Origin: a virus
Length of the DNA: 41,696 bases
Virus record (IMG/VR): IMGVR_UViG_3300044856_000069
Span: 1 to 41,696 of that record
Direction: 5' to 3' (one strand)
Of this stretch, positions 8,859-41,696 are shown piece after piece (the stretch's first letter is position 1; each line of letters starts with the position of its first letter). Both the position numbers and the translations under genes were made by a program. The notes under the pieces were generated by a model. That model searched no databases. It saw only the letters and a list, made by a program, of their open reading frames with translations, and was not told the DNA's origin.

Positions 8859-9217
8859 GCGAACTCCTCCCCTCGTGCGTAGGCAAATGCCTCGTCCCAT
8901 CCAGTGCCGACCAGCATCTCATCGGCAGTCTTGACATCTTTGCAGATTTCACGCGCCAAAATAAACTCAGATACGCATCCAACGCTTTCCTGCCAGTTTC
9001 CACACATCACGATGCCGTCGCAGCGCCGGAGCAGCTCCAGGCAATAATCCAGCCCCTGGATGTAGTCTGTTTTGCTATACGGACACCGGATCGCGTGCAC
9101 CGGGCTGACGAAACAAATATCCGGATACTCGGTCTGCAGAGCCCGCACTACCTCGTCCGCCTTGGCCTCGTTTTTCCGCTTACCCCCGTAGGGATGTGAC
9201 ACATAGTATATTTTCAT
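8855..9217 (-). CDS. Nucleoside 2-deoxyribosyltransferase-like fold protein (DUF1937/DUF4406-like), 120 aa
   Basis: MKIYYVSHPYGG...FVSPVH...LLRRCDGIVMCGNWQESVGCVSEFILA matches the pattern I recall for these families. GGAGG lies 8 nt upstream of ATG 9217. Confidence 0.5.
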   Translation of the reverse strand: MKIYYVSHPYGGKRKNEAKADEVVRALQTEYPDICFVSPVHAIRCPYSKTDYIQGLDYCLELLRRCDGIVMCGNWQESVGCVSEFILAREICKDVKTADEMLVGTGWDEAFAYARGEEFA

Positions 9218-9287
9218 TCCAATATCCTCCATGAACGCGGGCCGCCAGTGATAGAGCACCTCACCCCTTCTGCGTCTGCGCCTGTGG

Positions 9288-9317
9288 TTGACGGTCCGTC
9301 GGCCCGCGTGGTATAAT
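9288..9317 (+). promoter_or_regulatory. Strong plus-strand promoter TTGACG-18-TGgTATAAT inside a minus-strand gene block
   Basis: -35 at 9288..9293, extended -10 TG at 9309..9310, and TATAAT at 9312..9317. Confidence 0.6.
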
Positions 9318-9323
9318 TAACAA

Positions 9324-9391
9324 ATCTGAAAAATTTATCGTCGCTTTTGTATTCGCCGCCGCTGATGCTGCAACATCAGCGGTATTTTTTT
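9324..9391 (+). ncRNA. Candidate ~68-nt antisense small RNA (promoter + intrinsic terminator, no ORF)
   Basis: Bounded by the 9288..9317 promoter and the 9359..9391 terminator. Complementary to the 3' end of 9376..9582 and to the downstream intercistronic region of the early mRNA. Confidence 0.45.
9359..9391 (+). terminator. Plus-strand intrinsic terminator
   Basis: Perfect 9-bp stem CCGCTGATG-ctgcaa-CATCAGCGG followed by TATTTTTTT. There is no U-run in the minus-strand sense. Confidence 0.65.
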
Positions 9392-9582
9392 ATGAAATCA
9401 TCCAGCTTCCGAAACCAAATATGCACATATCCGCACTTCTCACAATGTTGCATGGTCTTGAAAAGTTCTATAAATTCTTCTTCCTTGTACTTTCCCATTA
9501 GGTTGCGTTTTCCACAACGAGGGCAAGTCCACGATTTCGGCAGACTTTTATTCACCAAAATGGTTTCGTCAATGTTTCTCAT
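9376..9582 (-). CDS. Zinc-ribbon protein, 68 aa
   Basis: Two CxxC pairs (CPRC...CEKC). Lies in an AT-rich segment. Confidence 0.6.
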   Translation of the reverse strand: MRNIDETILVNKSLPKSWTCPRCGKRNLMGKYKEEEFIELFKTMQHCEKCGYVHIWFRKLDDFIKKYR

Positions 9583-9591
9583 TCTGCCACC

Positions 9592-9957
9592 TCACCCCAA
9601 TATTTTCATAACCAAATCCGCTTTAACACCTGCTTTTTGTTCTAATAAATCTGCAAGATATGGAACGCCAAAACGCTTTGCCAACCATGTGCGATATTCT
9701 GCTTGGTCATTCCAATCACCACCTGATGCTTCCCAATCTGTATAGTCAAAGTCTTTAAAAGTGTACGATGTTGGGATATAGCAATTTTTCTTTCCATCTT
9801 CCCAATTTTCATAAAAACTGCACTCGACTTCTGTTTCATCGGTAACCTCGTTAATGCCTTTGCTGATTACGCATCTTTTAAGACTATCTTCACAGATAAC
9901 ATCATGGTGTAATTGCCATATTTCTTTTTTTGTAAGCTTGTGAAGCCATCTGTTCAT
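9592..9957 (-). CDS. Hypothetical acidic Trp-rich protein, 121 aa
   Basis: ORF with GGAGGTGG upstream of ATG 9957. AT-rich composition unlike the flanking DNA. No motif recognised. Confidence 0.55.
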   Translation of the reverse strand: MNRWLHKLTKKEIWQLHHDVICEDSLKRCVISKGINEVTDETEVECSFYENWEDGKKNCYIPTSYTFKDFDYTDWEASGGDWNDQAEYRTWLAKRFGVPYLADLLEQKAGVKADLVMKILG

Positions 9958-10003
9958 GCTGCCACCTCCTTTTCATCTTTGACGCTTATGGGCTTTTTGC
10001 CCG

Positions 10004-10267
10004 TCATCTATCTGCCTGACATGGCACGATAATCCGCGTCCCCGGCTGGACAAGTCCTGCATTGATAGTAGGATTAAGTTGCCGGGTGTAATACATCACC
10101 TCGTCGACAGGACGAGTGTCGCCGGTTTCTGCCATTGCCGATTCAACGGCTCCCCATACGGTGCCGCCTGCCGGAATGTACCGGACGACGTGGACGGTTG
10201 CCGTTTCCGCTGGACAAACCGCCATAGCCAGCATTGCAATGATTGCCAGTGCAATAATGCTTTTCAT
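10004..10267 (-). CDS. Secreted LysM-like protein, 87 aa
   Basis: Signal peptide MKSIIALAIIAMLAMAV. LysM-like YIPAGGTVWGAVE...QLNPTINAGLVQPGTRIIVP. Confidence 0.5.
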   Translation of the reverse strand: MKSIIALAIIAMLAMAVCPAETATVHVVRYIPAGGTVWGAVESAMAETGDTRPVDEVMYYTRQLNPTINAGLVQPGTRIIVPCQADR

Positions 10268-10321
10268 CGTTGCCGCCTCCTTACACGTTCAGCTGCACAC
10301 CGCAGTCATATCTCGTCGGCC

Positions 10322-10519
10322 TCATGTCTGCGCCATCCTCTCTGCAATGTATTTTTCGATCGCCGCGGCCGGGATCAGCTTCCGGTTGTTCCGGATAATA
10401 AAGCCGATATGCCCGTCAGCAATCTCCGCCTTCAAAAAATTGATGCTGCAACATAGCAGCTGGCACGCCTCCCCGGGCGGGTACAACATCCGCCGCGGAA
10501 TTTCCTTTGCCTTTTTCAT
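10322..10519 (-). CDS. Excisionase-family (MerR/AlpA-like) HTH protein, 65 aa
   Basis: MLYPPGEACQLLCCSINFLKAEIADGHIGFIIRNNRKLIPAAAIEKYI fits the excisionase-type HTH pattern. Second gene of the early operon. Confidence 0.5.
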   Translation of the reverse strand: MKKAKEIPRRMLYPPGEACQLLCCSINFLKAEIADGHIGFIIRNNRKLIPAAAIEKYIAERMAQT

Positions 10520-10544
10520 GGGCCTCCTCCTTTCGTTCAGTTTT

Positions 10545-10757
10545 CTAAACTTTTAGGGTAAAAAAATAAACGCAGACCATATCTATCGGTTCATGAAACA
10601 ACTCAACCGTTCGTTGCATCTCCGCTTGCTTCCATTCCGTGGATCCATTCAATCGGGAATACAGCACAGATCGGTTCATTCCAAGAGCCTCTGCAAATGC
10701 GTCCTGCGTTCCAAAGATTTCTTTAATTTTACCCAACAACTTGTTATACGAATACAC
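10545..10757 (-). CDS. Cro-like XRE-family HTH regulator, 70 aa
   Basis: GTG start with AGGAGGG 6 nt upstream. HTH FAEALGMNRSVLYSRLNG. Divergent from the repressor gene. Confidence 0.7.
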   Translation of the reverse strand: MYSYNKLLGKIKEIFGTQDAFAEALGMNRSVLYSRLNGSTEWKQAEMQRTVELFHEPIDMVCVYFFTLKV

Positions 10758-10773
10758 TTATAGCCCTCCTTTC

Positions 10774-10789
10774 GTTCAGGTTTCTGAAC
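10774..10789. promoter_or_regulatory. Operator palindrome GTTCAG-gttt-CTGAAC at the start site of the cro-like promoter
   Basis: Perfect 6-4-6 inverted repeat. A degenerate copy, GTTCAG-tttt-CTAAAC, lies at 10535..10550, and a CTAAAC half-site at 10839..10844. Confidence 0.5.
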
Positions 10790-10791
10790 TC

Positions 10792-10820
10792 ATGATAACA
10801 TACGCTGTAAAATAACGCAA
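10792..10820 (-). promoter_or_regulatory. Early lytic promoter (TTGCGT-17-TGtTATCAT)
   Basis: Minus strand: -35 at 10820..10815 and -10 at 10797..10792 with an upstream TG. Confidence 0.55.
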
Positions 10821-10871
10821 GGTTGATTTTCCATATTTCTAAACTTTTTTTACATTTTGCACGTTTTTTTG

Positions 10872-10900
10872 TTGCGTTTTCTGTACAAAGATGGTATATT
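10872..10900 (+). promoter_or_regulatory. Repressor promoter (TTGCGT-17-TGgTATATT)
   Basis: -35 at 10872..10877 and -10 at 10895..10900 with TG at 10892..10893. Positioned back-to-back with the lytic promoter. Confidence 0.55.
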
Positions 10901-10921
10901 GTCACCAAGGAGGATTTGATC

Positions 10922-11293
10922 ATGACCAACAATATATTCGCTACACGGATGCGGCAGGCAATGAATGAAAAAAATGTAACAGCCGCAGAGTTGGTCCGGA
11001 TGACTGGCATCGGAAAGTCAGCTATTAGCTCGTACCTTTCCGGACGTTACCTGCCAAAACAGAATAATACATTTTACATAGCCAGAGCACTTGAAGTGTC
11101 CCCCGCATGGTTAATGGGCGGAAGCATTAAAGAGCCGCCAACTCAACTCCCTGTGCTCACAACTGCTGATCAGGCGCTCCTGGATGATTTCCATAAACTT
11201 AATGATACGGGTCGCGCGATTGCGCTCGGAGCGGTAAAAAGTCTCACGTTGAACCCTGAATATATTGAAAAGGAAAAAGCCACATCCGCGTAG
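10922..11293 (+). CDS. cI-like prophage repressor, XRE-family HTH, 123 aa (no S24 peptidase domain)
   Basis: ATG at 10922 after AAGGAGG. HTH NVTAAELVRMTGIGKSAISSYLSGRYLPK...ARALEVSPAWLMGG. Confidence 0.75.
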   Translation: MTNNIFATRMRQAMNEKNVTAAELVRMTGIGKSAISSYLSGRYLPKQNNTFYIARALEVSPAWLMGGSIKEPPTQLPVLTTADQALLDDFHKLNDTGRAIALGAVKSLTLNPEYIEKEKATSA

Positions 11294-11308
11294 TGGCGAG
11301 GAACCGAC

Positions 11309-11824
11309 ATGTTAAAACGACTTTATAAAAAGTTAATTTCCTTAGTTGGCAGTAAGTCACAATCAAATCCGCTACCAAACCCCAAGACATGGCGAGAAGC
11401 ATTCGAGCAGGCACATGGGCAGCAAGCACGAGAAAGTGATGCACTTCTCCGAAAAGAAGCCAAACGCCTCACTGGATCGGAAAATTACAATACTTTTACT
11501 TTCAGTAAAGCCAGAGTCAGAGAAGCAGGAATCCATTGGTATATATGGGAAACATGTCAGGACTCCAGGGTAAGGCCAAGCCACAAAAACCTGCAAGGGG
11601 TAATTGTAAATTATAACGAAGCTCCCAACGCAGAACTGCTAATCGGAAACGGCCCCGGAACAAAACGCCATGCCGGAACTGCAAAAGGATGTAGATGCTA
11701 TGCCGCTCCGCTGATTATGGCCAGCGATGTGCATTGGCCTGCACGCGTTCATTACCAAGGCAAAATCAGAGTTATGACATTGTCAGAATTTAAAAAGATT
11801 TGCAAAGATAACATTTTTTACTAA
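11309..11824 (+). CDS. Stand-alone MuF/SPP1-gp7-type domain protein, paralogue of the virion minor head protein, 171 aa
   Basis: WYIWETCQDSRVRPSHKNLQGVIV...GCRCYAAPLI...WPARVHYQGKIRVMTLSEFKKI aligns with WYVWRSEEDSRVRDSHRLMDGVLI...NCRCYPEPLI...WPHKVYYGGRIQMMTLAQFKAI of ORF 34258..35106. Starts 16 nt after the repressor stop codon. Confidence 0.75.
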   Translation: MLKRLYKKLISLVGSKSQSNPLPNPKTWREAFEQAHGQQARESDALLRKEAKRLTGSENYNTFTFSKARVREAGIHWYIWETCQDSRVRPSHKNLQGVIVNYNEAPNAELLIGNGPGTKRHAGTAKGCRCYAAPLIMASDVHWPARVHYQGKIRVMTLSEFKKICKDNIFY

Positions 11825-12062
11825 CAACCATCCATGATTGGTTTTTTGTTCTTAACTCGCCAATTTTGTCGAGTCTTTCGAGTAACACCCATCAACCACA
11901 CGCAAACCCGCATGGTTGACGCACGGCCATCACTTCTAAATTTTACTCAAAAAGCAGGCTCTGAAAGCCGCATGGATACTGACCTCAAAAAAACAAACCC
12001 GCACCACGACTGATGGCCGACACCTTAAAAATCGTTTGAAAATCAAACGATCTACTCAATAC

Positions 12063-12102
12063 AAAAAAAATGACCGTCCGGTGCTGGCACACCGGACGGT
12101 CA
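12063..12102 (-). terminator. Strong minus-strand intrinsic terminator upstream of int
   Basis: Perfect 13-bp stem TGACCGTCCGGTG-n6-CACCGGACGGTCA, followed on the minus strand by U8. Confidence 0.75.
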
Positions 12103-12152
12103 TGCAGACTACGCATTTTAAGTTTAACGAAAGACAAAAAGGAGTTGCCTGC
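12063..12152 (-). ncRNA. Candidate ~90-nt small RNA divergent from int
   Basis: Bounded by the extended -10 promoter (12159..12187) and the 12063..12102 terminator. No RBS-preceded ORF is present. Confidence 0.4.
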
Positions 12153-12158
12153 CTTTTT

Positions 12159-12187
12159 ATTATACCATAGGCAGGCGCTCCGGAAAA
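12159..12187 (-). promoter_or_regulatory. Minus-strand extended -10 promoter (TTTTCC-17-TGgTATAAT)
   Basis: TATAAT at 12164..12159 and TGG at 12167..12165, with a weak -35 at 12187..12182. Overlaps the int leader. Confidence 0.45.
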
Positions 12188-12196
12188 GAGGTAAAC

Positions 12197-13387
12197 ATGT
12201 CAGTATTCAAAAACCCAAACGGCCTGTGGTACGCCAGGATCTCAACCGGCCAGAAAAACGAAAAAGGAAACTACACCTACGTCACCAGCAAACACGGCCG
12301 CAAAAGCCGCAGTGACGCCCTAATGGACGAAGCAGAGCTCCGTGTGTTCGTAGCCAGCAATAAGGCCGACACACTGACGCGGATCCGGAACCATGAGCTC
12401 CTGGACCGGTACATGGCCACCAAGGGCATCCGGAAAACAACAGCCAAAACTTACCGCAGCGCCGTGAACCACATCAAGCGCCTGCTGCCGGATATCCCCG
12501 CCCGGGATACCACCACCATGCACATGGAAGCCTACCGCCAGGCTGTGCTCCAGGAACCGGTGGCCACGTGTACCCACCGCACCCTCATCTCCCTGGTCAA
12601 GGCAGCCTTCACATGGGCCGCAGATAACGATATGATCATCAAGTCCCCGGCCCGGAACCTGAAGCTGCCGGAGCGGGCCGAACCCGCCGGTATGCATGTG
12701 CAGATAGATCTGCTGCAGGAAATTCTGCAGACTGCCAAAACCTACCGGTACAGCCAGCTGTACATCCCGCTGCTGTTGGCCGGGATGTGCGGGCTCCGGA
12801 TTTCAGAGATCTGCGGTCTGCAGGATAAGGATGTGACCGCGGATCACGTCCAGGTGCGGTACAATTTCCTGCGGGCCGACAGCGCACCGAGCCTGCAGCC
12901 ATTAAAGACCAAAGCAGCAGCTCGCGTGGTGCCCCTGATTCCCGCTGTGCGCCGCGAAATTAAAGAGTACAAGGCTTTTATCAAGTCATGCCGTAAAGCG
13001 GCCCTGCAGGCCCGTATGGAGGCCAAAAAGAACCCCTGTTTCTTAGACGGCGATGCGCCATGGGATGAAAGCGGATTCTTTTTTGTGTTCCCCAAAGATG
13101 GCCGGCCCCACGCCAAAGAATATGTGGAACGGCAATGGAAGCGGTTCAAGCAGTCCCCTGAGATGAAGCCGCTGATCAGCAAGCACCCGGAGCTGGCCGG
13201 GATGCGGCTCCATGACTTCCGGCACTCTTTCGGATCCAACCTGCGGTACGCCGGAGCGCCGATCGAGGACGTGACGGAAATCCTGGGCCACACAAACAGC
13301 AACTTCACCCGGACGACCTACGCGCTGCCGATGCAGGGCACCCATGAGCGCAGTATGGCGCGGTTTGCTAAGCTCTGTAAAAAATGA
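12197..13387 (+). CDS. int: Tyrosine integrase with N-terminal arm-binding (AP2-like) domain
   Basis: Catalytic region HDFRHSFGSNLRYAGAPIEDVTEILGHTNSNFTRTTYA. N-terminus NGLWYARIS...GNYTYV. AGAGG RBS. Confidence 0.9.
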   Translation: MSVFKNPNGLWYARISTGQKNEKGNYTYVTSKHGRKSRSDALMDEAELRVFVASNKADTLTRIRNHELLDRYMATKGIRKTTAKTYRSAVNHIKRLLPDIPARDTTTMHMEAYRQAVLQEPVATCTHRTLISLVKAAFTWAADNDMIIKSPARNLKLPERAEPAGMHVQIDLLQEILQTAKTYRYSQLYIPLLLAGMCGLRISEICGLQDKDVTADHVQVRYNFLRADSAPSLQPLKTKAAARVVPLIPAVRREIKEYKAFIKSCRKAALQARMEAKKNPCFLDGDAPWDESGFFFVFPKDGRPHAKEYVERQWKRFKQSPEMKPLISKHPELAGMRLHDFRHSFGSNLRYAGAPIEDVTEILGHTNSNFTRTTYALPMQGTHERSMARFAKLCKK

Positions 13388-13394
13388 TTAATTT

Positions 13395-13695
13395 TGTGAA
13401 TGAATTTCTGGTCTCTGTGACGAATTGATGAAAACTGCCAGGTATAAAGCCGGTAATCGAATTAGATAGAAATAGATAAAGAAAAACCCCGGAAGCCCCA
13501 ATTTATGCGGTCTCCGGGGATTTCTTTAGATAGAATTGAAAAGTCAAGCCTTATTCTTCCGTCTTGATAACCTTTATTTCAGGCAGGGAACGCCAGCCCA
13601 GACGGCGTGCGCATCGTGTCGTTTGGCAGGCGACGCCTGTGAATGAATTTGTGAAAAGTGAGGTTTAGATAGAATTAAATTGATTTAGATACATT
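13395..13695. other. Putative attP region: two families of arm-type repeats flanking a GC-rich core
   Basis: TGTGAATGAATTT at 13395 and 13638. TTAGATAGAA(T/A)T at 13462, 13526 and 13665, plus TTAGATACATT at 13685. GC-rich segment 13581..13637. Located just 3' of int, the usual attP position. Confidence 0.45.
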
Positions 13696-13700
13696 TTAAT

Positions 13701-13733
13701 AAGGAAGAAAAACGACCGGCGCTTGTGCCGGTC
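13701..13733 (-). terminator. Intrinsic terminator of the 52-codon ORF
   Basis: Minus-strand stem GACCGGC...GCCGGTC followed by GUUUUUCUUCC. Confidence 0.6.
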
Positions 13734-13892
13734 TTATGCCTCCCTCACCTCCCAAATTTCACGCAGGCTCATGGAGCCGTAGCAGCAACCGTTCTCAATT
13801 TCGCGGGCCTTTTTCTGTGCGCTCCGCAGGTTCCGCGCTTCAATTTCTCTCGTGGTTTCGTAGCCGCCATTTTTTAACTGCGTGCCATACAA
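13734..13892 (-). CDS. Small hypothetical protein, 52 aa (below the track cutoff), TTG start
   Basis: AGGAGG 5 nt upstream of TTG 13892. Translation: MYGTQLKNGGYETTREIEARNLRSAQKKAREIENGCCYGSMSLREIWEVREA. Third positions are G/C-rich, forming an island in AT-rich DNA, and the ORF has its own terminator. Confidence 0.45.
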   Translation of the reverse strand: MYGTQLKNGGYETTREIEARNLRSAQKKAREIENGCCYGSMSLREIWEVREA

Positions 13893-13962
13893 ACATACCT
13901 CCTAGGAATTGACAATTAAGAACAAGAATTGCAATTTTTTTGCACTTACTGATTTTAATTGC

Positions 13963-13999
13963 AAAAAAAATAAAGCCCCCAGGGCGGTCCCGGAGGCTT
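13963..13999 (-). terminator. Minus-strand intrinsic terminator
   Basis: AAGCCUCCGGG-accgc-CCUGGGGGCUU forms an 11-bp stem (two G-U pairs) followed by UAUUUUUUUU. Confidence 0.65.
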
Positions 14000-14015
14000 T
14001 GTTATATGCGGCTTC

Positions 14016-33016: not shown

Positions 33017-34261
33017 TTATACCTCCTTCTTGTAGTGCGGATTGTATTTTGCCGCAATCTCACGGCCCAGGGCCGCATCGTCAACAGGTTTGGAATCTTT
33101 TGCCCGGCGGGTAGCCTTCTGAATAGCCACGTAGCCGGAGTCGCGCACATTGCCGCGGATCATCTGCGCCAGTGCGTCAGCAGCCCGACGACGCTGTGCT
33201 TTATTCGGGATAGCAGCCACCACCGGACGCAGTGCTTTGATGGCTTCAATAGCAGCATCGCGCGCGCCGCAGCCGTCCTCCACAGCGTCCCCGGATTCTT
33301 CTGCTTCGATCAGGCCGTCAGCAACCGCGCTCTGGGCCTCGTTGATTTCTTCCGGATCCGCTTCCACAGCGTCCTCATCTTCAACGTCTTCCCGGTCGGT
33401 CAGCTCTTCCTCCAGGGCATCCAGAGCATCGCCTTCCTCTTCGTCGACGTCCGCCTCAGTACCGGCTTCTTCCTCTTCTTCCGGAACCGTGTCCTCAGCC
33501 GGCGGCGCCAGTCTCGCAGTCAGATCTGCGAGCGCATCTTCAATGCGTTTAAATCTGGCTTCTCTGGCTTCATTCGGGTCTTCCGGTTCTGCAGGGCTTT
33601 CATCCTTGCCGTCACCGTTGACCAGTTTCGCAGCCTCCAGCGCTTCTTCCGGGTCGGCGTCCTTGGCGAACGCAGCCCACATGCGCTGTAAAATATTACC
33701 TTTGCTCATGCGTTTTTCGCTCCTTTCCATCGCATTGTCATGTATGGCCACGCCGTGGCCGGCGCGACCTTTATCCACGACAGCAACGTGGTTCCCGCGA
33801 ATTTCTCTTTGTTCCAAGGTGTGGTCGCCAGTCGGAACCCACAAGCAGTTGTACCCGCATGAGATTTCACGTTTGCCATCTTGAACCGCGCGAACCAACG
33901 CGCCATCGTGAATAACTAAATCAGCCACCAGGCAGCCTTCATACTTGCCTGTGCCTTTCCGGACGTCCCGCACAACGCCCCGTGTGTATTGTCCGTAGTT
34001 TTCAGACGTCACGTCTTCATCCGGGTGGTTTTCCGTTACCGGCTTACCCTCAAAAGACGCCACCGCCGCCGGGGAAAAGACCTCATCTGCAGGACGGTTC
34101 ACCTTGAAAATTTCATCCGGGCGCTCGGTCTGTCCGATCTCCCGTCCCAGATAGTCCTGCACGCCAACGCGCGCGATGGGTACATCCCTGCAAATTAAAA
34201 AGCCCTCTGGCGTGCGGCTTATGCTGTCAGAGATGCGGCTTCCATAATATGCGGTTTTCAT
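33017..34261 (-). CDS. Scaffold / prohead-core protein (DUF2213-like) with acidic C-terminal half
   Basis: N-terminus EGFLICRDVPIARVGVQDY...FEGKPVTENHP. Long Asp/Glu-rich tract. Confidence 0.55.
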   Translation of the reverse strand: MKTAYYGSRISDSISRTPEGFLICRDVPIARVGVQDYLGREIGQTERPDEIFKVNRPADEVFSPAAVASFEGKPVTENHPDEDVTSENYGQYTRGVVRDVRKGTGKYEGCLVADLVIHDGALVRAVQDGKREISCGYNCLWVPTGDHTLEQREIRGNHVAVVDKGRAGHGVAIHDNAMERSEKRMSKGNILQRMWAAFAKDADPEEALEAAKLVNGDGKDESPAEPEDPNEAREARFKRIEDALADLTARLAPPAEDTVPEEEEEAGTEADVDEEEGDALDALEEELTDREDVEDEDAVEADPEEINEAQSAVADGLIEAEESGDAVEDGCGARDAAIEAIKALRPVVAAIPNKAQRRRAADALAQMIRGNVRDSGYVAIQKATRRAKDSKPVDDAALGREIAAKYNPHYKKEV

Positions 34262-35106
34262 GCTGCAGCAGCACCTCCTATCGCTTTAAACTGTGCCAGC
34301 GTCATCATCTGGATGCGCCCGCCATAATAGACCTTGTGCGGCCATTTGATATCGGTGAACAGGATCAGCGGCTCCGGATAGCATCGGCAATTGAAAATGT
34401 CGCCTGCGTGATAACTTCCGTAGGTCCGGTCTTCGCCGGCCAGGGCCTCCGGGCTCGGCGGGTCGTCCCAGCTTATGAGCACACCGTCCATGAGCCTGTG
34501 AGAGTCTCTGACGCGCGAATCTTCTTCGGACCGCCATACATACCAGCGGATGCCTGCCGCCTCGCTACGGGCCTGTGTGAGCACCGTGGACGCCTTGCTG
34601 GATTCGGTCCTTGCTATCAGCATCGCGTGCGCCCGGGTCATATGCGGCCATTTTTCCAGAACGTCCTCCATGATCGCTTCAGGGCGCAGGCCCTCGTTGG
34701 CTTCCCGGGCTACCATTTCTGTAACCTGTTTTGCCACCCGCTCCGGCATGGATTTGATCACTTCCGCGTTTCTGTCCACAATGTCCCAGAACGCAGTGCC
34801 GACTGCAGTCTGCCCCAGCTCTGTCTGCAGAGCGTTATATACGACGCGCCCTTTAGCCCCGGACCGGGCCGCCTCCCGCCACGTTCGGTGCCCGTCGGAA
34901 AAGATGTGCGTCGCAATGGACCGCGCCAATATAGCCGCTGCTTTCTGGTAGGTAGGGCTGCGGGCGTACCTTCGGATAGCCGCAGCTATTAAAAAAGGAC
35001 TCCGGACCCGAGATAACTCGGTCCGAAGCCCTTCTATCATTCGCGCCAGCGCCACGCCGTAACGGCGCTCAACTGATCGCTTTAATTGCCATTGTGGATA
35101 TCTCAT
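34258..35106 (-). CDS. Minor head protein, MuF / SPP1 gp7 family
   Basis: MLIARTESSKA...WYVWRSEEDSRVRDSHRLMDG...NCRCYPEP. Confidence 0.8.
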   Translation of the reverse strand: MRYPQWQLKRSVERRYGVALARMIEGLRTELSRVRSPFLIAAAIRRYARSPTYQKAAAILARSIATHIFSDGHRTWREAARSGAKGRVVYNALQTELGQTAVGTAFWDIVDRNAEVIKSMPERVAKQVTEMVAREANEGLRPEAIMEDVLEKWPHMTRAHAMLIARTESSKASTVLTQARSEAAGIRWYVWRSEEDSRVRDSHRLMDGVLISWDDPPSPEALAGEDRTYGSYHAGDIFNCRCYPEPLILFTDIKWPHKVYYGGRIQMMTLAQFKAIGGAAAA

Positions 35107-36350
35107 TTTTTCAGCTCATTAAATACCGCATCAAAAGCGTCCCCGGAAACATCATTCAAAAGAATGTCTGACAAATTTTTCTGCCGGTCTTCATCAAACC
35201 CGAGCCCCGGATCGTTGATTTTTTGCTGCAGGGCACCAACGGCCTTATGGAAATTACCGTCGGCCATGTACATCTCGGACTTCAGCATCATGGCCACCAT
35301 TGCGTGGTCGTTTTTCCCCTGCTGAATGTACTTCTTAGTTAGGTCGTCCATTTTTTGACCAGAAGCAGCAGCGCCCTGCGTTTTTGCATACTTACGCGCA
35401 GCCTCGATCTTAGGTCTTGCCTTTTGCAGTGTGGCGGCCGGAGCCGCAGCAGGCTTGGCCTGTTTTTCCTGCTTTTCTGAAGCCTTCATATAGGCTTTCT
35501 CGGCCTTGATCGCTTTTTGCTTTGCCATCTGCATGGCCTGCTTGTAAATTTCCGGATTCCGGTACAAGTCGTGCAGTCCTTTAGCATTCTCGGTAAAAGC
35601 TACATACCTGTTAAACGCGTCCTTGTACTCATTTTCTAACTGCTCAATGCTTTTTTCAGGTTTCGCAGCCTTCGGTTGCGGTTTGGGAGCCGGCTGCGCA
35701 GCCTTTGCCAACTTGCGCGTAGCCGCGATCTGCGGGCGGCCTTTTTCCAGCGTGGCCTTGGCAGCCTGGAACTTTTTCTGCTCCGCTTCCAGCGCCTGCT
35801 TCTGCGGATAAAGCTGATTCATGGTCTTCTCGTAGTTTTTGCGGCGCAAATCATCACGACGCCCGTTCAGGCCATACTCCTCATTGATATCCCGCTTTTT
35901 TTGCATCAATTTGTCGTATTTGTCGCTATACTCCTTCATCAGGCCCTTGCCTTTTTCTTTTACGCGCTCAGCCAGGCTTTCCATTCCGGGTTTGTTTTTT
36001 AAACGGCCGTAAGCATGGCTATAACGCCAGTCTTTTTGATGGTTATCCCAGAGATTCTGAATGTCTTTATCGACGTCCGCCTTTAGCTTTTCACCGCGAG
36101 CCATGTTACTTTTAAACTGTGAAACTGCGGTTTTTTTCGCTTTTTCAATTCCGGCATTTACACCAGCCAAAGCGCTGGACACGTTCTTCAATTGCTGGAC
36201 CTTCGCCTTCCCGCCGGACTGCGCCTTGATCACCGTCGCACCGCCTCCAGACGTGAACTGCCCATTGTCCGCCCGTTTGTGCTTGGACTCGTCCCATTCT
36301 GCATCACACGCACGGATGCGTTCCAGGTTTATCTGCGTTTTATCAGCCAT
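35103..36350 (-). CDS. Lys-rich helical virion-associated protein (possible internal/ejected protein), 415 aa
   Basis: GGAGGT RBS and its own promoter. The N-terminal motif DAEWDESKHKRADNGQFTSGGG is shared with the portal extension. Contains internal duplicated ATL(E/Q)K(G/A)RP(Q/K)I modules. Confidence 0.6.
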   Translation of the reverse strand: MADKTQINLERIRACDAEWDESKHKRADNGQFTSGGGATVIKAQSGGKAKVQQLKNVSSALAGVNAGIEKAKKTAVSQFKSNMARGEKLKADVDKDIQNLWDNHQKDWRYSHAYGRLKNKPGMESLAERVKEKGKGLMKEYSDKYDKLMQKKRDINEEYGLNGRRDDLRRKNYEKTMNQLYPQKQALEAEQKKFQAAKATLEKGRPQIAATRKLAKAAQPAPKPQPKAAKPEKSIEQLENEYKDAFNRYVAFTENAKGLHDLYRNPEIYKQAMQMAKQKAIKAEKAYMKASEKQEKQAKPAAAPAATLQKARPKIEAARKYAKTQGAAASGQKMDDLTKKYIQQGKNDHAMVAMMLKSEMYMADGNFHKAVGALQQKINDPGLGFDEDRQKNLSDILLNDVSGDAFDAVFNELKK

Positions 36351-36470: not shown

Positions 36471-36680
36471 TTACATGGACAGCAGGTCCACCATCGACGC
36501 GGCCAGCCGGAGCCTTTCGGTTTCCGGACCGTCCGGTGCCTTCGCGACTTCTTCAATCTCGATAGCGGCGCATTTTTCGTACAGGTCCTCCAGCGCATCA
36601 TCGTCCATCGCATTCAAGTCGTCCAGCGTGAGATCGAATTCAGACTTTAAAAAATCCAGATGTTCTTGATTTATTCCCAT
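36471..36680 (-). CDS. Small highly acidic protein, 69 aa (candidate immunity/antidote or DNA mimic)
   Basis: AGGAGG 7 nt upstream of ATG 36680. Starts 41 nt inside the portal 3' end. Translation: MGINQEHLDFLKSEFDLTLDDLNAMDDDALEDLYEKCAAIEIEEV... Confidence 0.65.
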   Translation of the reverse strand: MGINQEHLDFLKSEFDLTLDDLNAMDDDALEDLYEKCAAIEIEEVAKAPDGPETERLRLAASMVDLLSM

Positions 36681-38706
36681 CCTTGCGCCTCCTGTACACA
36701 TGCATGACACTCATGATCTGCCCGTTTCCGTCGACAACAACGCGCTTGTTGTCCTTTTCATAGCAGGTCGTGTTCGGGCGGTTTCCCGGAAAAGACCGCG
36801 CCGCGGTCTGCAAAATGTCCATAACCTGCCTCGGCGGGATATCCCTGCCAATCATACGGACGTTTGCATGGCTCGTGATCTTCGTGATTTTTCCACCCGG
36901 AAAAGAGCGCCCGAGCAATTGTTTTTTAGCATTTCGCATATTAGCATCATACTGGCCAGGTGTCAAGTCCTCTTTTACGACATTGTCCCCGGAAACAGTT
37001 TTTAATTGCTCGATTTGGGCCTGGACCTCCGGCGTGCTTTTTTGGTTCCAGAGCGCCGTGAGTTTCTGACGCGCCTGGTCGCGTTCGCCTTTGTTTTTAC
37101 CGACGCCGGAACCGGCCCTAAACTTTCCGTCGTCGCCCCGAGGGTGCTCGGATTCATCCCAGTCTGCATCTAAAACATGAAATAAGGCCGCGTCGCGCCC
37201 AGATTCGCCCGCTGTCGCATTTTCGTTCCCGGCCCGACCACTTCCTTGCCCCGGTTCGTTTCCGGGCCGCTGTGGCGGTTTTGGAGCGTCGGTTTTTTCG
37301 CCGCCCCCAAAATCCATGCCCGGCGGCATCATTTCACCCGGGTCCTCGATCTCATCCGGTGCTTTTTCGATGTCTTCGTCGGTAATGTTCGTCCAGACGC
37401 CGGTCCGTTCTGACTGCTGCTTCAATTCCTGCAGGCCCGTGCGCTTGGAAATCATGCCGGCATTCAGCGCAGCCACCACATTGTCGGTGCCGGTCTTCGC
37501 CAGCTCCATGCGCTCCTTATCGGACGGCTCGCTAACCGGATTGAAGTCGAAGTCAAGGTCGTCCGGTACCGCCCCAAACATCGACACCATGAACGGCGGC
37601 AGCAGCTTATTCAGGATCGGCCGCAGGATGCTCTCCTGCTTTTCACCAATCATGTCGTAGTAATTCTGCAGGTCGGATTCACCCGTAGCGTTTAACCCCG
37701 ACGGACTCCGGCCGAACAACTTTGTAACCGGAATCTCGGCAGCGCCGGAGACATCCATTATAAATTGCTGATAGCAGTCAGCCAGGCCGCCGAACGTATA
37801 CTGGTGTGTTTCAAAGCCGTCCGCAGCGTCCATGATCTGGATTCCCATGTTGGACGCCAGCCAATTCTGTGCGGTCAGCGTGCGGTACAGCTCCGCCTGG
37901 CTCTGCGGGTCGGTGGCAGCAAGCGTCTGCCCGATGTCATTCATCTTCAGCACCCGCAGGTTTGCGAGAAACGTCAGCTGCGCGATGTTCCAAGAAACAT
38001 TATCGCGTTTTTTGAGCTCGTCAAACACCGACTCGATAACCGACGCGCCCCAGTACAGCTCCGCCTGGCGCTCCCAGAACGGTAGGTTATTACCAACAAA
38101 CCGGATGCAGCGCGTGTGGTGCACCCGCGTCATGGCCCCGTCCACCGGGTCGGTCACGATGTACGCGTCAGGCAGCCCATATTCTGGATCTGAAATATCG
38201 TCCACCAGCTCGCTGGACGGACTAACACCATTCCATCGGTCCAGAATCATAAGCCCCTTAAAGTCCCCCGGAACCATCTCCTCCAGCGCCAGCGGCATGG
38301 CCAACTGCTCCGGGCTGCCCTGGCCTTTGATTAGCATGATGCCAATGGCCCCGCCATACAGACGGCCCCAGCACAAGCCCTCCTGAATCTTTTTGATGAG
38401 CTGTGTGCGTCGTAGCTCCACGTCTATTTTTTTGATGAGGTCCGGAGCCAGACCCGACGTGATGGTAATCCAGTTTTTCAACATGTCGGCCGGAATGATG
38501 TCCACGATGCGCCGCACGATCCAGGAATCCCGGTACATGGCGTTCAAAGTACCGAAGTCGTTGGTCATACGGCTCATAACATACTGCGTGCTGTCTAACA
38601 GGTTCGGCGTTCCGGCACCCAGGCGCGCTAAAGGATTGCTGAATCCATCAAGCGCCGTCCCGCGCCGCACAACCAGCGCCTGTGCGATTTTCTTTTTTTT
38701 ACGCAC
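36640..38706 (-). CDS. Portal protein (DUF1073-like) with a ~175-aa C-terminal extension ending in a RelE/DUF4258-like domain
   Basis: Portal core NAMYRDSWIVRRIVDIIPADMLKNW... Low-complexity linker, the DWDESEHPRGDDGKF motif, and the tail ITSHANVRMIGRDIPPRQVMDIL...KRVVVDGNGQIMSVMHV. GTG start at 38706, 6 nt after GGAGGA. Confidence 0.75.
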   Translation of the reverse strand: MRKKKKIAQALVVRRGTALDGFSNPLARLGAGTPNLLDSTQYVMSRMTNDFGTLNAMYRDSWIVRRIVDIIPADMLKNWITITSGLAPDLIKKIDVELRRTQLIKKIQEGLCWGRLYGGAIGIMLIKGQGSPEQLAMPLALEEMVPGDFKGLMILDRWNGVSPSSELVDDISDPEYGLPDAYIVTDPVDGAMTRVHHTRCIRFVGNNLPFWERQAELYWGASVIESVFDELKKRDNVSWNIAQLTFLANLRVLKMNDIGQTLAATDPQSQAELYRTLTAQNWLASNMGIQIMDAADGFETHQYTFGGLADCYQQFIMDVSGAAEIPVTKLFGRSPSGLNATGESDLQNYYDMIGEKQESILRPILNKLLPPFMVSMFGAVPDDLDFDFNPVSEPSDKERMELAKTGTDNVVAALNAGMISKRTGLQELKQQSERTGVWTNITDEDIEKAPDEIEDPGEMMPPGMDFGGGEKTDAPKPPQRPGNEPGQGSGRAGNENATAGESGRDAALFHVLDADWDESEHPRGDDGKFRAGSGVGKNKGERDQARQKLTALWNQKSTPEVQAQIEQLKTVSGDNVVKEDLTPGQYDANMRNAKKQLLGRSFPGGKITKITSHANVRMIGRDIPPRQVMDILQTAARSFPGNRPNTTCYEKDNKRVVVDGNGQIMSVMHVYRRRKDGNKSRTSGFFKV

Positions 38707-40030
38707 TTGCAATCCTCCTCGCTTTGATCACGGTGGAAACAAAATAACGCAGGGCGTCGCAGCTGTGGTCGTTTATCTTTAACGGCCGCTCTTTCCCGCC
38801 CTGCTCTATCGCCTTATTATCCCAGGCATAGGACTGATGCTCTTTTATCGTGTTCACGCAGCGCCGGTGAAAATGGATCCTGCGCCGCGTCAATAACGTG
38901 TTCACATTGCGGATACCCTCGATAACGCTGTTGTCCGCGTTTATGGTCTCAACCGTCTCCTTCATCCGCAAGCCCCGGTTCCGGAGCTCAATCTTGAAAG
39001 ACGCCGCCGATGGGTCGATGATGGTCCCCGTAGGCCAGACGTCCACCGGGCACTTGTGAATGAAACCAAGCAGATCGTCCGCATATTGGCTGTTGTCTTT
39101 TTCGTAGTTCCCGTCGGCCCGGCTGTCCCAGTAATACTCATCCGTCACCCAGATGTCCTGCCCATCATCCCAGATGTCCAGGTACACCATCGGGTTCACT
39201 GTGCCGTAGTCAATGGCCAGGAACCGACGCATGATGTGTGCATTTTTGTATATCCAGTCCAGCTTCTCATCCCCGAAAAGCAGGTCGTCAGACCAGGCAT
39301 CCCGATAGATCGCACCCTGGGCCGTGACCCAGAGCCCCTGAATGAACCGCTGGTAGAACACGCCAGTGTAGGTCGTTCGGTAACGCTCCTGGACCTCTTC
39401 AGTCAGCGACGGGTTGTCGTCCATAAGGAAGTGTATAAAAAGCAGTTTTTTCTGATCTGCTTTTTCAATCCAGTTTTTCAGGAACCAGTGCATCGGGCTG
39501 TCCGGGTTACAGTTAAACCACATTTTAGCTCCCGGAACGGAGCACCGGCCTGTGGCCTGGTTCACAAAAGACTCCGGCATCAACGCCACTTCGTCGCAGT
39601 AGAGACCCGCCAGCGTGATGCCCTGAATCAGATCCTGTGAAGATTCATCCCGGCCGCCAAACACGTAAAAGTAATTCGTTTTATCGCCTTTGGATATTAC
39701 GATCAGGTTCTCTGTGCGCGACTCCTCGATGGTGAACCGTCGGATCATCAGTACCGGTTTTAACCAGCTCCATACGTTACGCCGGAACGACCCTACCGTC
39801 TTACCGCACATGGCAAAATTCTGGCCGTCGTAGGTGTCCATGGCCCAGAGCACAAAACTGATGGCCATGGCTACCGTCTTCCCGGCACGAATAGAACCGT
39901 CCGCAATGATGCCGTTATGCTTTCGGTACGGCGACTTCTCCGCCCACCACGTCAGCAGCTGCATCTGCTTCAGGCTGAACCGGCTGAACCTTACGACCGG
40001 TTTTATTTGCAGTTTTCTTTTTACGGCCAT
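38699..40030 (-). CDS. terL: Terminase large subunit
   Basis: Walker A GSIRAGKTVA. A typical N-terminal ATPase and C-terminal nuclease layout. ATG at 40030 preferred (GGGGTGA upstream). Confidence 0.85.
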   Translation of the reverse strand: MAVKRKLQIKPVVRFSRFSLKQMQLLTWWAEKSPYRKHNGIIADGSIRAGKTVAMAISFVLWAMDTYDGQNFAMCGKTVGSFRRNVWSWLKPVLMIRRFTIEESRTENLIVISKGDKTNYFYVFGGRDESSQDLIQGITLAGLYCDEVALMPESFVNQATGRCSVPGAKMWFNCNPDSPMHWFLKNWIEKADQKKLLFIHFLMDDNPSLTEEVQERYRTTYTGVFYQRFIQGLWVTAQGAIYRDAWSDDLLFGDEKLDWIYKNAHIMRRFLAIDYGTVNPMVYLDIWDDGQDIWVTDEYYWDSRADGNYEKDNSQYADDLLGFIHKCPVDVWPTGTIIDPSAASFKIELRNRGLRMKETVETINADNSVIEGIRNVNTLLTRRRIHFHRRCVNTIKEHQSYAWDNKAIEQGGKERPLKINDHSCDALRYFVSTVIKARRIASA

Positions 40031-40469
40031 GCCGCTCACCCCACACATCGACGGCGCTGGCCTTGATGGCCTCGGTAAACCCGTCGTCCTCGTATTCCGT
40101 CAGCTGGCCGGCCGTCTTATCCGGCAAAACAGTCTGCCCAATTGTGTCCCTGATATATTCCGCAGCCCGGACGTTCCCTTTTATCGCAGCTGCGATCATC
40201 GCCACCAGGACCTTGTCCTGGACTGTCATATTCGTGGCGCTGTTTAGCGCCTCCACGAACGACGTTATCTCGTGAATAGGTGCGTCGTTTTCTTTGAACC
40301 ATGGCAGCTGGAGCAGGTGTTCAAGCCCCTCTCGCATCGTTCGCCGTTCGCGCTTTGCTTTTCCGGAAGCGGTACCGCCACGCCGGCCATACTCTGCAGC
40401 GTTCTTTTTGGTGATTCTTACCCCCCGCTTCAGGTTTTCCTTTGTGGCTTCCTGCGCCGGACTACGCAA
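39915..40469 (-). CDS. terS: Terminase small subunit
   Basis: Basic N-terminus NLKRGVRITKKNAAEYGRRGGTASGKAKRERR. Position upstream of terL. TTG start. The 3' end overlaps terL by about 116 nt. Confidence 0.55.
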   Translation of the reverse strand: MRSPAQEATKENLKRGVRITKKNAAEYGRRGGTASGKAKRERRTMREGLEHLLQLPWFKENDAPIHEITSFVEALNSATNMTVQDKVLVAMIAAAIKGNVRAAEYIRDTIGQTVLPDKTAGQLTEYEDDGFTEAIKASAVDVWGERHGRKKKTANKTGRKVQPVQPEADAAADVVGGEVAVPKA

Positions 40470-41696
40470 TGACCTCTGCCTTGCCGCCGGTCAGCTGCTC
40501 CCAGCGTTCCACAATTACGTCGCAGTACACCGGGTCGAGCTCCATCATGTAGCAGGCCCTGTGCAGCTGCTCGCACGCGATCAGCGTCGACCCGGAGCCG
40601 CCAAACAAATCCAGTACCGTGTCGTCCCGCTGGCTGCTGTTTTTAATGCATTTAGCACAAAGCGCAATCGGCTTCATGGTCGGATGCTCGCCGTTGCGTT
40701 TCGGTTTGTCAACGTAGATCAGCGTGCTGGCGTCCTCGGTGTTCACAACCTCCGCAGCCGGAACCCGCAGCACCAGGTTCTTGTTCCCCGACGCAAAATT
40801 GATCAGCATGGACCCGTCCGCATCCTGGCTCATCACTACCGGGAAGTTTTCACTGATGGTCGTGCCCTGCTTCCGGCCCCCGAACCAGCGATGCTTCCCG
40901 CCGGCCTTCCAGCCATACAGAATCGGCTCATGTTGCCACTGAAAATCCTGCCGGCCCAGAGTAAAAGTGTTCTTGGCCCAGATCAGGCACTGCTTCAGCA
41001 GCAACCCGGAGTCAACAAACGCCTGCCGGAACGTTAGCGACTCGCTGTCCGCATGGCAGATGTACACCGTAGCCCCGGGCTCCAGGACCTCCTCGGCCCG
41101 CTGATAAAAAGAAAGCAGGAAGTCATAAAACTGACTCCCTGCCATTTTGTCGTTTTTGATTTTTAGGTGTTCTTTTGTACCGCCGGTGTAGTCGATGTTG
41201 TACGGCGGATCTGTGAACATCATGCTCATAGGCACCCCGCCGGTGAGCTTTGCCACATCCGCAGCGTCGGTAGACGACCCGCACATCAGCCGGTGTGCAC
41301 CCAGCTGGTAAATCATTCCGGGCTGTGTTTTCGGTGTTTTGATTTTTTCCACCGCGGCCTCGAAGTCGAACCCGTCCTCCTCCGGTTCCGGATCTGGCAA
41401 CTCGAACCCGAACGCCCGCATGTCAATGTCGGCGATTTGCAGCAGCTCCCCATTCAGCAGCGACTCATCCCAGGACGCCAGCTCGGCCGTTTTATTGTCG
41501 GCCAGCCTGTAGGCCCGTATTTCCTCTTCTGTGAGGTCGTCTGCCCGGACGCAAGGTACCTGCCGCAGGCGTAACCGTTTCGCCTCCTTGAGCCGCGTGT
41601 GGCCGCATACGACCACGTTGTCCTTGTCAATCACAATAGGCTGCCGGAACCCGAACCGCTTGATCGATTCTGCAACCGGCTTCACAGCCGGGTCGT
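40462..41696 (-). CDS. ParB-like nuclease domain fused to an N6A/N4C DNA methyltransferase (3' portion; 5' end at 1..194)
   Basis: ParB-N FGFRQPIVIDKDNVVVCGHTRLKEA. Methylase motif IV DPPY and motif I FGGSGST, in beta-class order. Confidence 0.85.
   Translation of the reverse strand, partial: DPAVKPVAESIKRFGFRQPIVIDKDNVVVCGHTRLKEAKRLRLRQVPCVRADDLTEEEIRAYRLADNKTAELASWDESLLNGELLQIADIDMRAFGFELPDPEPEEDGFDFEAAVEKIKTPKTQPGMIYQLGAHRLMCGSSTDAADVAKLTGGVPMSMMFTDPPYNIDYTGGTKEHLKIKNDKMAGSQFYDFLLSFYQRAEEVLEPGATVYICHADSESLTFRQAFVDSGLLLKQCLIWAKNTFTLGRQDFQWQHEPILYGWKAGGKHRWFGGRKQGTTISENFPVVMSQDADGSMLINFASGNKNLVLRVPAAEVVNTEDASTLIYVDKPKRNGEHPTMKPIALCAKCIKNSSQRDDTVLDLFGGSGSTLIACEQLHRACYMMELDPVYCDVIVERWEQLTGGKAEVIA
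41570..41696. repeat. Second copy of the 127-bp terminal overlap
   Basis: Identical to 1..127. Confidence 0.9.

Follow-up and report, generated by a model that had tools for sequence, protein, structure and literature searches.

In phage lambda, the rexAB genes are accessory genes of the immunity region which lie on the strand of the repressor and are expressed from the prophage. The gene described here occupies a comparable position in the DNA of a temperate gut phage, a stretch of 41,696 nucleotides (IMG/VR record IMGVR_UViG_3300044856_000069, positions 1 to 41,696), called "the window" below, and its product is a truncated relative of a minor head protein of the MuF/gp7 family. Gene and product will be referred to as mini-MuF, and the full-length protein encoded in the head module of the same phage as the virion MuF. 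Mini-MuF follows a CI-like repressor gene on the plus strand and may, on the reading that we tentatively favour, act in the lysogen against superinfecting phages. Since bases 1–128 recur exactly at 41569–41696, the window represents an entire phage genome, about 41.57 kb long and assembled as a circle.

Described MuF proteins and prophage-encoded exclusion

The virion proteins of the family have been characterized mainly through SPP1 gp7 and 80alpha gp44. The former is bound tightly by the portal, targeted to the procapsid and supports the start of infection; about 25 % of SPP1 virions without gp7 are infectious (PMC6316719). Incorporation of gp44 requires the portal crown (PMC12889711). The protein leaves the virion together with the DNA and attaches to blunt DNA ends, which it shields from exonuclease, and it has been proposed to promote circularisation (PMC7290940). 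Its helical N-terminal part dimerises without binding DNA and its basic C-terminal part binds DNA; fragments of gp44 fail to complement, whereas the full-length protein supplied by the recipient cell partly rescues an incoming mutant phage in trans (PMC7290940). Moreover, 80alpha lacking gp44 lysogenises poorly, and gp44 has no specific binding to CI or to the cI-cro region (PMC7290940). Mini-MuF shares with SPP1 gp7, Mu gpF and 80alpha gp44 the C-terminal core with its D-x-R-V-R-x-S-H and C-R-C motifs. However, it is about 110 residues shorter, its ARTE motif is degenerate (TGSE) and it is much more basic; its gene is found in the lysogeny module and not after the portal gene, and the protein is presumably absent from the virion.

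MuF polymorphic toxins likewise have a MuF-family domain and occur in temperate phages, with gut and Firmicute hosts, and their authors also proposed a link to lysogeny (PMC5576092). They differ in combining a full MuF with a C-terminal toxin, in being encoded in the head module and in having a small immunity gene downstream, none of which applies to mini-MuF; the paper is silent on copies adjacent to a repressor or an integrase (PMC5576092). A further candidate, the PBECR "MuF-C" domain of Iyer et al. 2017, which is a separate C-terminal domain in Mu gp30, was rejected, as mini-MuF has no PBECR match in Pfam and Foldseek returned no PDB structure of the BECR fold.

In its location in the lysogeny module on the repressor's strand, mini-MuF resembles rexAB and Ltp/Sie2009. 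Ltp is the product of a lysogeny-module gene, is expressed from the prophage and excludes other phages (PMC3952083). These proteins have no sequence relationship to mini-MuF and are not virion-derived, and the membrane anchor or lipoprotein signal of Ltp/Sie2009 is without counterpart in the mini-MuF of the window, which has an amphipathic helix only. According to their abstracts, Tab, Tai and TerI are small prophage proteins that act against an invading phage at a structural or packaging step and protect the population. Their likeness to mini-MuF is one of proposed logic, the comparison being made by concept only. Each is described there with a self-immunity gene, whereas no such partner was found beside mini-MuF, and truncated paralogues of the targeted protein are not described in these abstracts.

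Stand-alone C-terminal cores like that of mini-MuF are also known outside the lysogeny-module clade (phrog_29840; protein P0029 in locus L011; protein P0008), but these lack the PKNWREAF N-terminal region and are not basic. P0008 (L010 4645–5160, 171 aa) is a fusion of a TM2 membrane domain to the MuF C-terminal core, and its gene, close to one with a DarA_C domain, belongs to a short plus-strand island surrounded by phage genes of the minus strand. Mini-MuF is a lysogeny-module accessory gene derived from a virion ejection protein, of which there is no description in the literature searched (MuF with superinfection exclusion, repressor and integrase contexts, PF04233). The first-pass annotation of the window, made from the sequence, had known of none either.

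A partial member of the Phage_Mu_F family

Three genes of the window are needed for the comparison:
11309..11824, plus strand: mini-MuF, a truncated basic protein of the MuF/SPP1-gp7 family, 171 aa, net charge +14 (homology, Pfam, charge)
34258..35106, minus strand: full-length virion MuF or minor head protein, 282 aa (PF04233 53.5 bits, phrog_324 E 9e-54, TIGR01641 55.1 bits)
36640..38712, minus strand: portal protein, to which the virion MuF is expected to bind (phrog_146 E 3e-120; partner role from the literature)

The first-pass annotation had placed the two MuF reading frames correctly, and the identity of 40–45 % that it had guessed by eye compares with 40 % over 121 aa in BLASTP (E 7e-32; residues 46–164 of mini-MuF against 156–276 of the virion MuF). 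All the shared motifs that it quoted are present. Both proteins score above the gathering cutoff of PF04233 (Phage_Mu_F; 29.6 bits), mini-MuF with 35.4 bits over profile positions 30–110 of 112 and the virion MuF over positions 2–109; SPP1 gp7 reaches 114 bits, and 80alpha gp44 is also above the cutoff. With TIGR01641, whose cutoff is 39.65 bits, mini-MuF scores 38.2 and SPP1 gp7 itself 37.8. In a hidden Markov model (HMM) comparison, the C-terminal core of mini-MuF matches a profile of full-length MuFs with an E of 2.9e-46, and the family alignment matches gp7 with 94 % probability (E 1.4e-7). This alignment comprises 103 sequences and is the basis of the AlphaFold2 model and of the column counts given below. 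Mini-MuF does not have the whole MuF domain, since the N-terminal end of the profile is left uncovered and the ARTE motif is not intact, and a head-module location after the portal gene is true of the virion MuF but not of mini-MuF. On sequence grounds, ORF 11309..11824 is a partial member of the Phage_Mu_F/gp7 family which has kept the domain but neither the full architecture nor the locus.

The head module reads, on the minus strand, TerL, portal, a lysine-rich protein of 415 aa, MuF, protease/scaffold and major capsid protein. The 415-aa protein (35103–36350) is of low complexity and is inserted between the portal and MuF genes; it has a counterpart of 262–282 aa in many but not all sibling phages and a weak match to phrog_30637, whose profile also spans portal sequence.

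Anatomy and charge of the protein

Three segments of mini-MuF can be delimited:
11312..11347, plus strand: codons of an N-terminal amphipathic helix (aa 2–13, LKRLYKKLISLV), predicted by AlphaFold2 (AF2) at low pLDDT; hydrophobic moment 0.73
11381..11407, plus strand: codons of PKTWREAFE (aa 25–33), the probable homologue of the WR.A motif in the N-terminal half of full-length MuFs
11498..11803, plus strand: codons of the conserved C-terminal core (aa 64–165) with DSRVRPSH, HAG, CRC and WPARV; net charge +8, pLDDT 89–98

The core has retained the invariant residues of the family. W80, H92, R129 and C130 are invariant throughout the family alignment and all four are present in mini-MuF, which also keeps D85, R87, R89, S91, C128 and P144 together with other conserved residues. 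A zinc site with the four ligands H92, H121, C128 and C130 was considered but rejected, H121 being conserved in only 66 of the 103 sequences. The model is confident over residues 71–170 (pLDDT 89–98), which form a beta-rich core, and places helices ahead of it at 2–13, 28–55 and 62–72. Its sole structural neighbours are predicted MuF-type minor capsid proteins; a Foldseek search of the model against the PDB gave nothing similar (best E = 2), and sequence and profile searches of the PDB gave no solved MuF structure. The idea that MuF has an ADP-ribosyltransferase-like or BECR-like fold thus found no support in the Foldseek search of the PDB.

What is missing corresponds to approximately the first 70 residues of the full-length protein and to some 65 residues between the WREA and ARTE regions, i.e., most of the helical half, and mini-MuF ends about 6 aa past the core. 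In listing the N-terminal MuF part as lacking, the first-pass annotation counted the ARTE region among the losses; this region still aligns, however, as a degenerate TGSE in which the R has become G and the E is kept. Its description of the first 65 aa or so as unique to mini-MuF does not fully hold either. PKTWREAF falls in MAFFT alignment columns which contain W in 73/103 and R in 62/103 sequences, and comparison of WREA with the MuF N-terminal half by hhalign gives P = 3e-4 at a probability of 39 %, with second HMM hits falling at the same profile position. This evidence is weak but consistent, and the N-terminal WREA motif is probably homologous to the WR.A motif of full-length MuFs.

The core has also shifted in charge. 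It carries +8 in mini-MuF and −2 in the virion copy of the same phage, compared with +2.4 +/− 3.0 in 61 virion MuFs, while the C-domains of the lysogeny-module clade as a whole carry +5 to +10. All members of the clade have an amphipathic or hydrophobic N-terminus, which in P0005 is a true transmembrane (TM) segment. No lipoprotein signal or TM segment was found in the mini-MuF of the window, in which the best 19-aa hydropathy window is −0.14.

An old lineage under purifying selection

In a neighbour-joining tree of the core, the mini-MuFs of lysogeny modules are monophyletic (bootstrap 182/200), and in similarity to mini-MuF the virion MuF of the same phage takes only the 28th place among 102 (43 %). 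A separate acquisition, as the first-pass annotation had suggested, is thus likely. In unsaturated pairs dN/dS is 0.14–0.23, and elsewhere pN is far below pS; the signal of purifying selection is seen in both the N- and the C-terminal parts, the reading frames are intact although synonymous sites are saturated, and the position of the start is conserved. Together, monophyly, low dN/dS and the low rank of the phage's own MuF indicate an old, selected lineage, neither a recent duplicate nor a remnant. The truncation relative to the virion copy, and the automated annotation as a head morphogenesis protein, could otherwise have suggested a head gene that was duplicated and is now decaying, or an ORF called in error. 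Selection on both parts of an intact frame refutes this explanation, the conserved start, the monophyletic clade and orthologue clusters of up to 58 members on well over 100 contigs speak against it as well, and we give it practically no credence.

The mini-MuF gene is also AT-richer than the virion copy, with 43.6 % GC against 58.8 % (52.7 % for the whole window). This difference had been noticed in the first-pass annotation as a property of the ORF; it in fact extends over the whole immunity region, approximately 10550–12200. Mini-MuF was probably acquired together with this AT-rich immunity region. A second AT-rich island (38–45 % GC) is found in the early region at 9200–10100 and holds the minus-strand ORFs 9376–9582, rich in Cys pairs, and 9592–9957.

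Position in the lysogeny module and probable expression

The lysogeny block, repressor, mini-MuF and integrase in that order, is on the plus strand, and most other genes of the window are on the minus strand. Its elements, apart from mini-MuF itself, are the following:
10545..10757, minus strand: cro-like early regulator (DUF739; PF05339 53.7 bits), divergent from the repressor
10770..10789, no strand assigned: operator-like palindrome TTTCGTTCAGGTTTCTGAAC in the cI/cro intergenic region
10872..10900, plus strand: putative promoter of the repressor operon, TTGCGT, 17-nt spacer and TG-n-TATATT (extended −10), picked out by eye
10907–10913, plus strand: AAGGAGG, ribosome-binding site of the repressor operon (from the sequence)
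10922..11293, plus strand: CI-like XRE repressor, 123 aa, HTH only (HTH_3 33.7 bits, HTH_19; PHROG transcriptional repressor/regulator families)
11298..11302, plus strand: GAGGA, ribosome-binding site 6 nt 5' of the mini-MuF ATG (from the sequence)
12031..12052, no strand assigned: perfect 9-bp inverted repeat, inside which, at 12048, DNA homology with locus L002 stops
12070..12103, minus strand: hairpin with a 14–15-bp stem and a T-run on the minus strand only, between the mini-MuF and integrase genes
12197..13387, plus strand: tyrosine integrase downstream of mini-MuF (Pfam Phage_integrase 62.5 bits)

Only 15 nt separate the repressor stop TAG (11291–11293) from the mini-MuF ATG (11309), and folding of 11285–11330 reveals no hairpin beyond chance at this junction (z = 0.32). 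This short gap, the ribosome-binding site and the lack of a terminator lead us to infer that the repressor promoter most likely drives mini-MuF in the lysogen. On the other side of the gene, the hairpin after the mini-MuF stop codon is no better than chance on folding; with no convincing plus-strand terminator there, transcription may run on into the integrase gene. The 372 nt downstream of mini-MuF look non-coding, a 59-aa ORF at 11834–12013 being unconserved in L006 and L001. This spacer contains two strong hairpins, 12031–12052 and 12070–12103 (joint fold z = −8.1), and the T-run of the second on the minus strand only looks as if it stopped antisense transcription into the immunity region. 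An Rfam scan of the whole window gave no match.

The XRE gene is built like that of a phage repressor: it is CI-like, diverges from the cro-like gene, and has operator-like palindromes beside it. A DUF739 cro-like gene also adjoins the repressor in L003 and L004. Besides the copy listed above, the palindrome recurs at 10531–10550, just downstream of the cro-like gene, and in a degenerate form at 10867–10886, overlapping the putative −35; the window thus contains 3 matches against 0.02 expected by chance. These features bear on the proposal of the first-pass annotation that mini-MuF is a toxic or abortive-infection effector restrained by the XRE protein in a toxin-antitoxin-like pair. XRE proteins are indeed common as antitoxins, the two genes adjoin here, MuF proteins are known carriers of toxin domains (PMC5576092), and the distant relative P0011 lies beside MazE-like and SecB-like genes. 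However, an antitoxin role fits the phage-repressor anatomy poorly, and in the MuF toxins it is a C-terminal extension that is toxic, the MuF part serving as delivery anchor; the few residues of mini-MuF past the core leave no room for such an extension. Phage_Mu_F is the only domain found by Pfam, without any toxin domain, and there is no PADLOC match. Such a pair therefore has a slim chance of being the explanation.

Proximity to the repressor also invites a second explanation, namely that mini-MuF is a partner of the repressor, such as a protease, an anti-repressor resembling ImmA or a co-factor in the switch. The genes of ICEBs1 are arranged as immR-immA-int, and the gene order here is the same. 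Furthermore, a Pfam scan detected no peptidase or autocleavage domain in the 123-aa repressor, which would then need another route of induction, and the invariant His92, Cys128 and Cys130 could hold a metal. Yet the Pfam scan assigns mini-MuF to no metalloprotease family (Peptidase_M78), its sequence has no HEXXH, and the same residues are equally conserved in virion MuFs. Mini-MuF is moreover paired with at least three very different repressors, and gp44 has been found not to bind CI or cI-cro specifically (PMC7290940). A role as repressor partner is improbable on balance.

A small protein is encoded in the early region (10004–10267, minus strand). It has a hydrophobic N-terminal segment and by eye looks secreted or membrane-anchored and LysM-like, and it is kept in L007 (6352–6669) and L025 (8494–8763) despite different repressors and replication genes.

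Relatives, neighbourhoods and hosts

Close orthologues of mini-MuF range from 98 % to 51 % identity and form several 90 % clusters, the largest with 58 members on well over 100 contigs. A survey for repressor-adjacent MuF genes, as the first-pass annotation had proposed, found 8 distinct arrangements, in 7 of which mini-MuF stands between an XRE repressor and an integrase. This order is seen in the window, L001, L006, L007/L008, L025–L027 and L045–L049; L001 is a prophage lying in a chromosome contig of 488 kb. Among these loci, repressors, integrases and replication modules are strongly divergent, and two unrelated integrase types are represented. The gap between repressor and mini-MuF is 6–15 nt in the window group. 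In L025, an extra gene for a secreted protein stands between mini-MuF and the integrase, so that the slot behaves as a cargo hotspot. The eighth arrangement, L002 (1–10660), has the same repressor and a 98 %-identical mini-MuF but no integrase downstream: DNA identity to the window stops at 12048 and is followed by a complete type I-E cas operon (cas6e to cas3, on the opposite strand) and an IS66 transposase. The break may reflect the junction of a prophage with its host, another module or a chimera made in assembly.

In three of three genomes in which both regions are readable (the window and the IMG/VR contigs 3300045988_135914 and 3300045988_160652), mini-MuF co-occurs with a full-length MuF of 279–282 aa in the same type of head module (TerL-portal-MuF-protease). 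Within one genome the two proteins are 40–47 % identical, no closer than between genomes. In comparison, that virion MuF gene is present on at least 42 viral contigs and mini-MuF on only 3; mini-MuF is thus an accessory gene in a minority of the phages sharing one head module. The same late genes are found behind different immunity regions. Among cultured phages, megablast of 9000–14000 gave no match, and tblastn found virion MuFs only.

This distribution is relevant to two further explanations. According to the first, mini-MuF would serve its own phage as an accessory of lysogeny establishment or integration that is produced along with CI and integrase, for instance by acting on the phage's own genome ends, on circularisation or as an aid to Int. 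It lies directly upstream of a same-strand integrase in the window, L001, L006, L007, L026, L027 and L045–L049, with no convincing plus-strand terminator before the integrase, and its co-occurrence with one head-module type is constant in the testable genomes. The poor lysogenisation of 80alpha without gp44, and the activity of gp44 in trans from the cell, would also fit (PMC7290940). Against this stand the rarity of mini-MuF relative to the head-module MuF, the two unrelated integrase types linked to it, the gene inserted before the integrase in L025 and the lack of an integrase there in L002. In addition, a protein made after injection would come too late for the DNA ends, which is the argument of the gp44 authors for delivery in the virion (PMC7290940). 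A role in the phage's own cycle is thus an unlikely alternative.

Alternatively, mini-MuF could be a lysogenic-conversion (moron) gene aimed at the host cell, the MuF fold having been reused, e.g., for binding nucleic acid or membranes. The cargo-hotspot position, the strongly basic protein with its amphipathic N-terminus and the TM segment or TM2 domain of relatives (P0005 and P0008, respectively) are compatible with this idea, as is the presence of the family in both lipopolysaccharide (LPS)-bearing and Clostridia-type hosts. But all the family-invariant residues of virion MuFs are retained, which argues for the same ligand, and in the testable genomes the tie to one head-module type is strict; a moron function appears decidedly unlikely.

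As to the hosts, some have LPS transport genes and others look like Clostridia. Prophages of the P0006/P0164 type in L045 (11800–20552) are integrated beside an FTCD_C gene and also adjoin an LPS transport/lipid A cluster (LptF/G, LptC, LptD-like, KdsA-like), which places at least part of the family in diderm hosts. The P0006-type phages, although otherwise different from that of the window, share with it a fusion of a ParB-like N-terminal domain to a DNA methyltransferase (40462–41685, minus strand, two genes upstream of TerL with a small ORF between; L049 17725–19026). A sibling phage, L050, carries a gene of the ADP-ribosylating exotoxin family (PF03496; 12957–13976) in its late-early region, at a position occupied by a Bro-N gene in the L049 phage. 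Finally, P0011 (L009 502–945) is a distant short relative with PTNWREAF, encoded after an endolysin-like fragment and before the MazE-like and SecB-like genes, at a site that looks like the other cargo end of a prophage.

Proposed interference with superinfecting phages

The reading that we favour, albeit with somewhat less than an even chance of being correct, is that mini-MuF is a dominant-negative protein expressed in the lysogen which interferes with superinfecting phages; a dominant-negative decoy had already been suggested in the first-pass annotation and is plausible. The homology, truncation, charge shift, position, purifying selection, accessory distribution and head-module co-occurrence have been described above; the interference itself, the partner and the expression are what we infer from them. 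Mini-MuF would bind the ligand of the C-terminal core of the virion MuF, that is, either fresh linear DNA ends or the portal, and, being devoid of most of the helical half, could not complete the reaction. The superinfecting phages affected would be those that depend on an ejection protein of the MuF type, in particular hetero-immune relatives which share the head module. Tab, Tai and TerI are precedents for prophage defences that disturb virion assembly, and Ltp is one for exclusion by a lysogeny-module gene. The finding of the same late genes behind different immunity regions matches the situation in which such hetero-immune, module-sharing phages meet.

A more specific version, which we consider doubtful, is that mini-MuF, with the ligand-binding core but without the dimerising helical half, caps the incoming ends of headful-packaged genomes or poisons the incoming MuF, so that circularisation is blocked. 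Such a block would stop both lytic growth and lysogenisation by module-sharing hetero-immune phages. A resident prophage would come to no harm from a protein directed at incoming DNA ends, since excision yields a circle, and for the same reason the version just described would need no self-immunity gene. If true, it would add a new form of prophage immunity, made out of a shortened ejection protein.

Several points weigh against interference as the function of mini-MuF. The domain correspondence with gp44 is through Pfam profile coordinates only, the direct profile match being weak (E 0.027). If the portal were the target, self-protection would be demanded, and none was identified. A PADLOC-DB 2.0 scan returned 0 families for both mini-MuF and the virion MuF. 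As regards expression, a scan for consensus promoters found none, the putative promoter at 10872..10900 failing to pass, and relatives of the P0006 type have about 250 nt, with a 34-aa ORF, between repressor and mini-MuF, so that co-transcription is not general. Lastly, the head module of L011 (7103–8372) contains a full-length MuF of 281 aa and, immediately after it as a tandem partial duplication, P0029, a 123-aa copy limited to the C-terminal core. A solo C-domain can hence also be a virion component, and the fold alone does not reveal the site of action.

Significance

Few minor head proteins are as widespread as those of the MuF/gp7/gp44 type, whose function is only partly understood. Mini-MuF is a natural separation-of-function fragment with which the part of MuF that binds DNA ends or the portal could be mapped. 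For annotation, the label "head morphogenesis protein" that IMG and annotation pipelines attach to it is wrong for a gene of the lysogeny module and could lead automated module calling astray. For the biology of these phages, mini-MuF points to a candidate principle of defence, in which a prophage turns shared virion machinery against its hetero-immune relatives.

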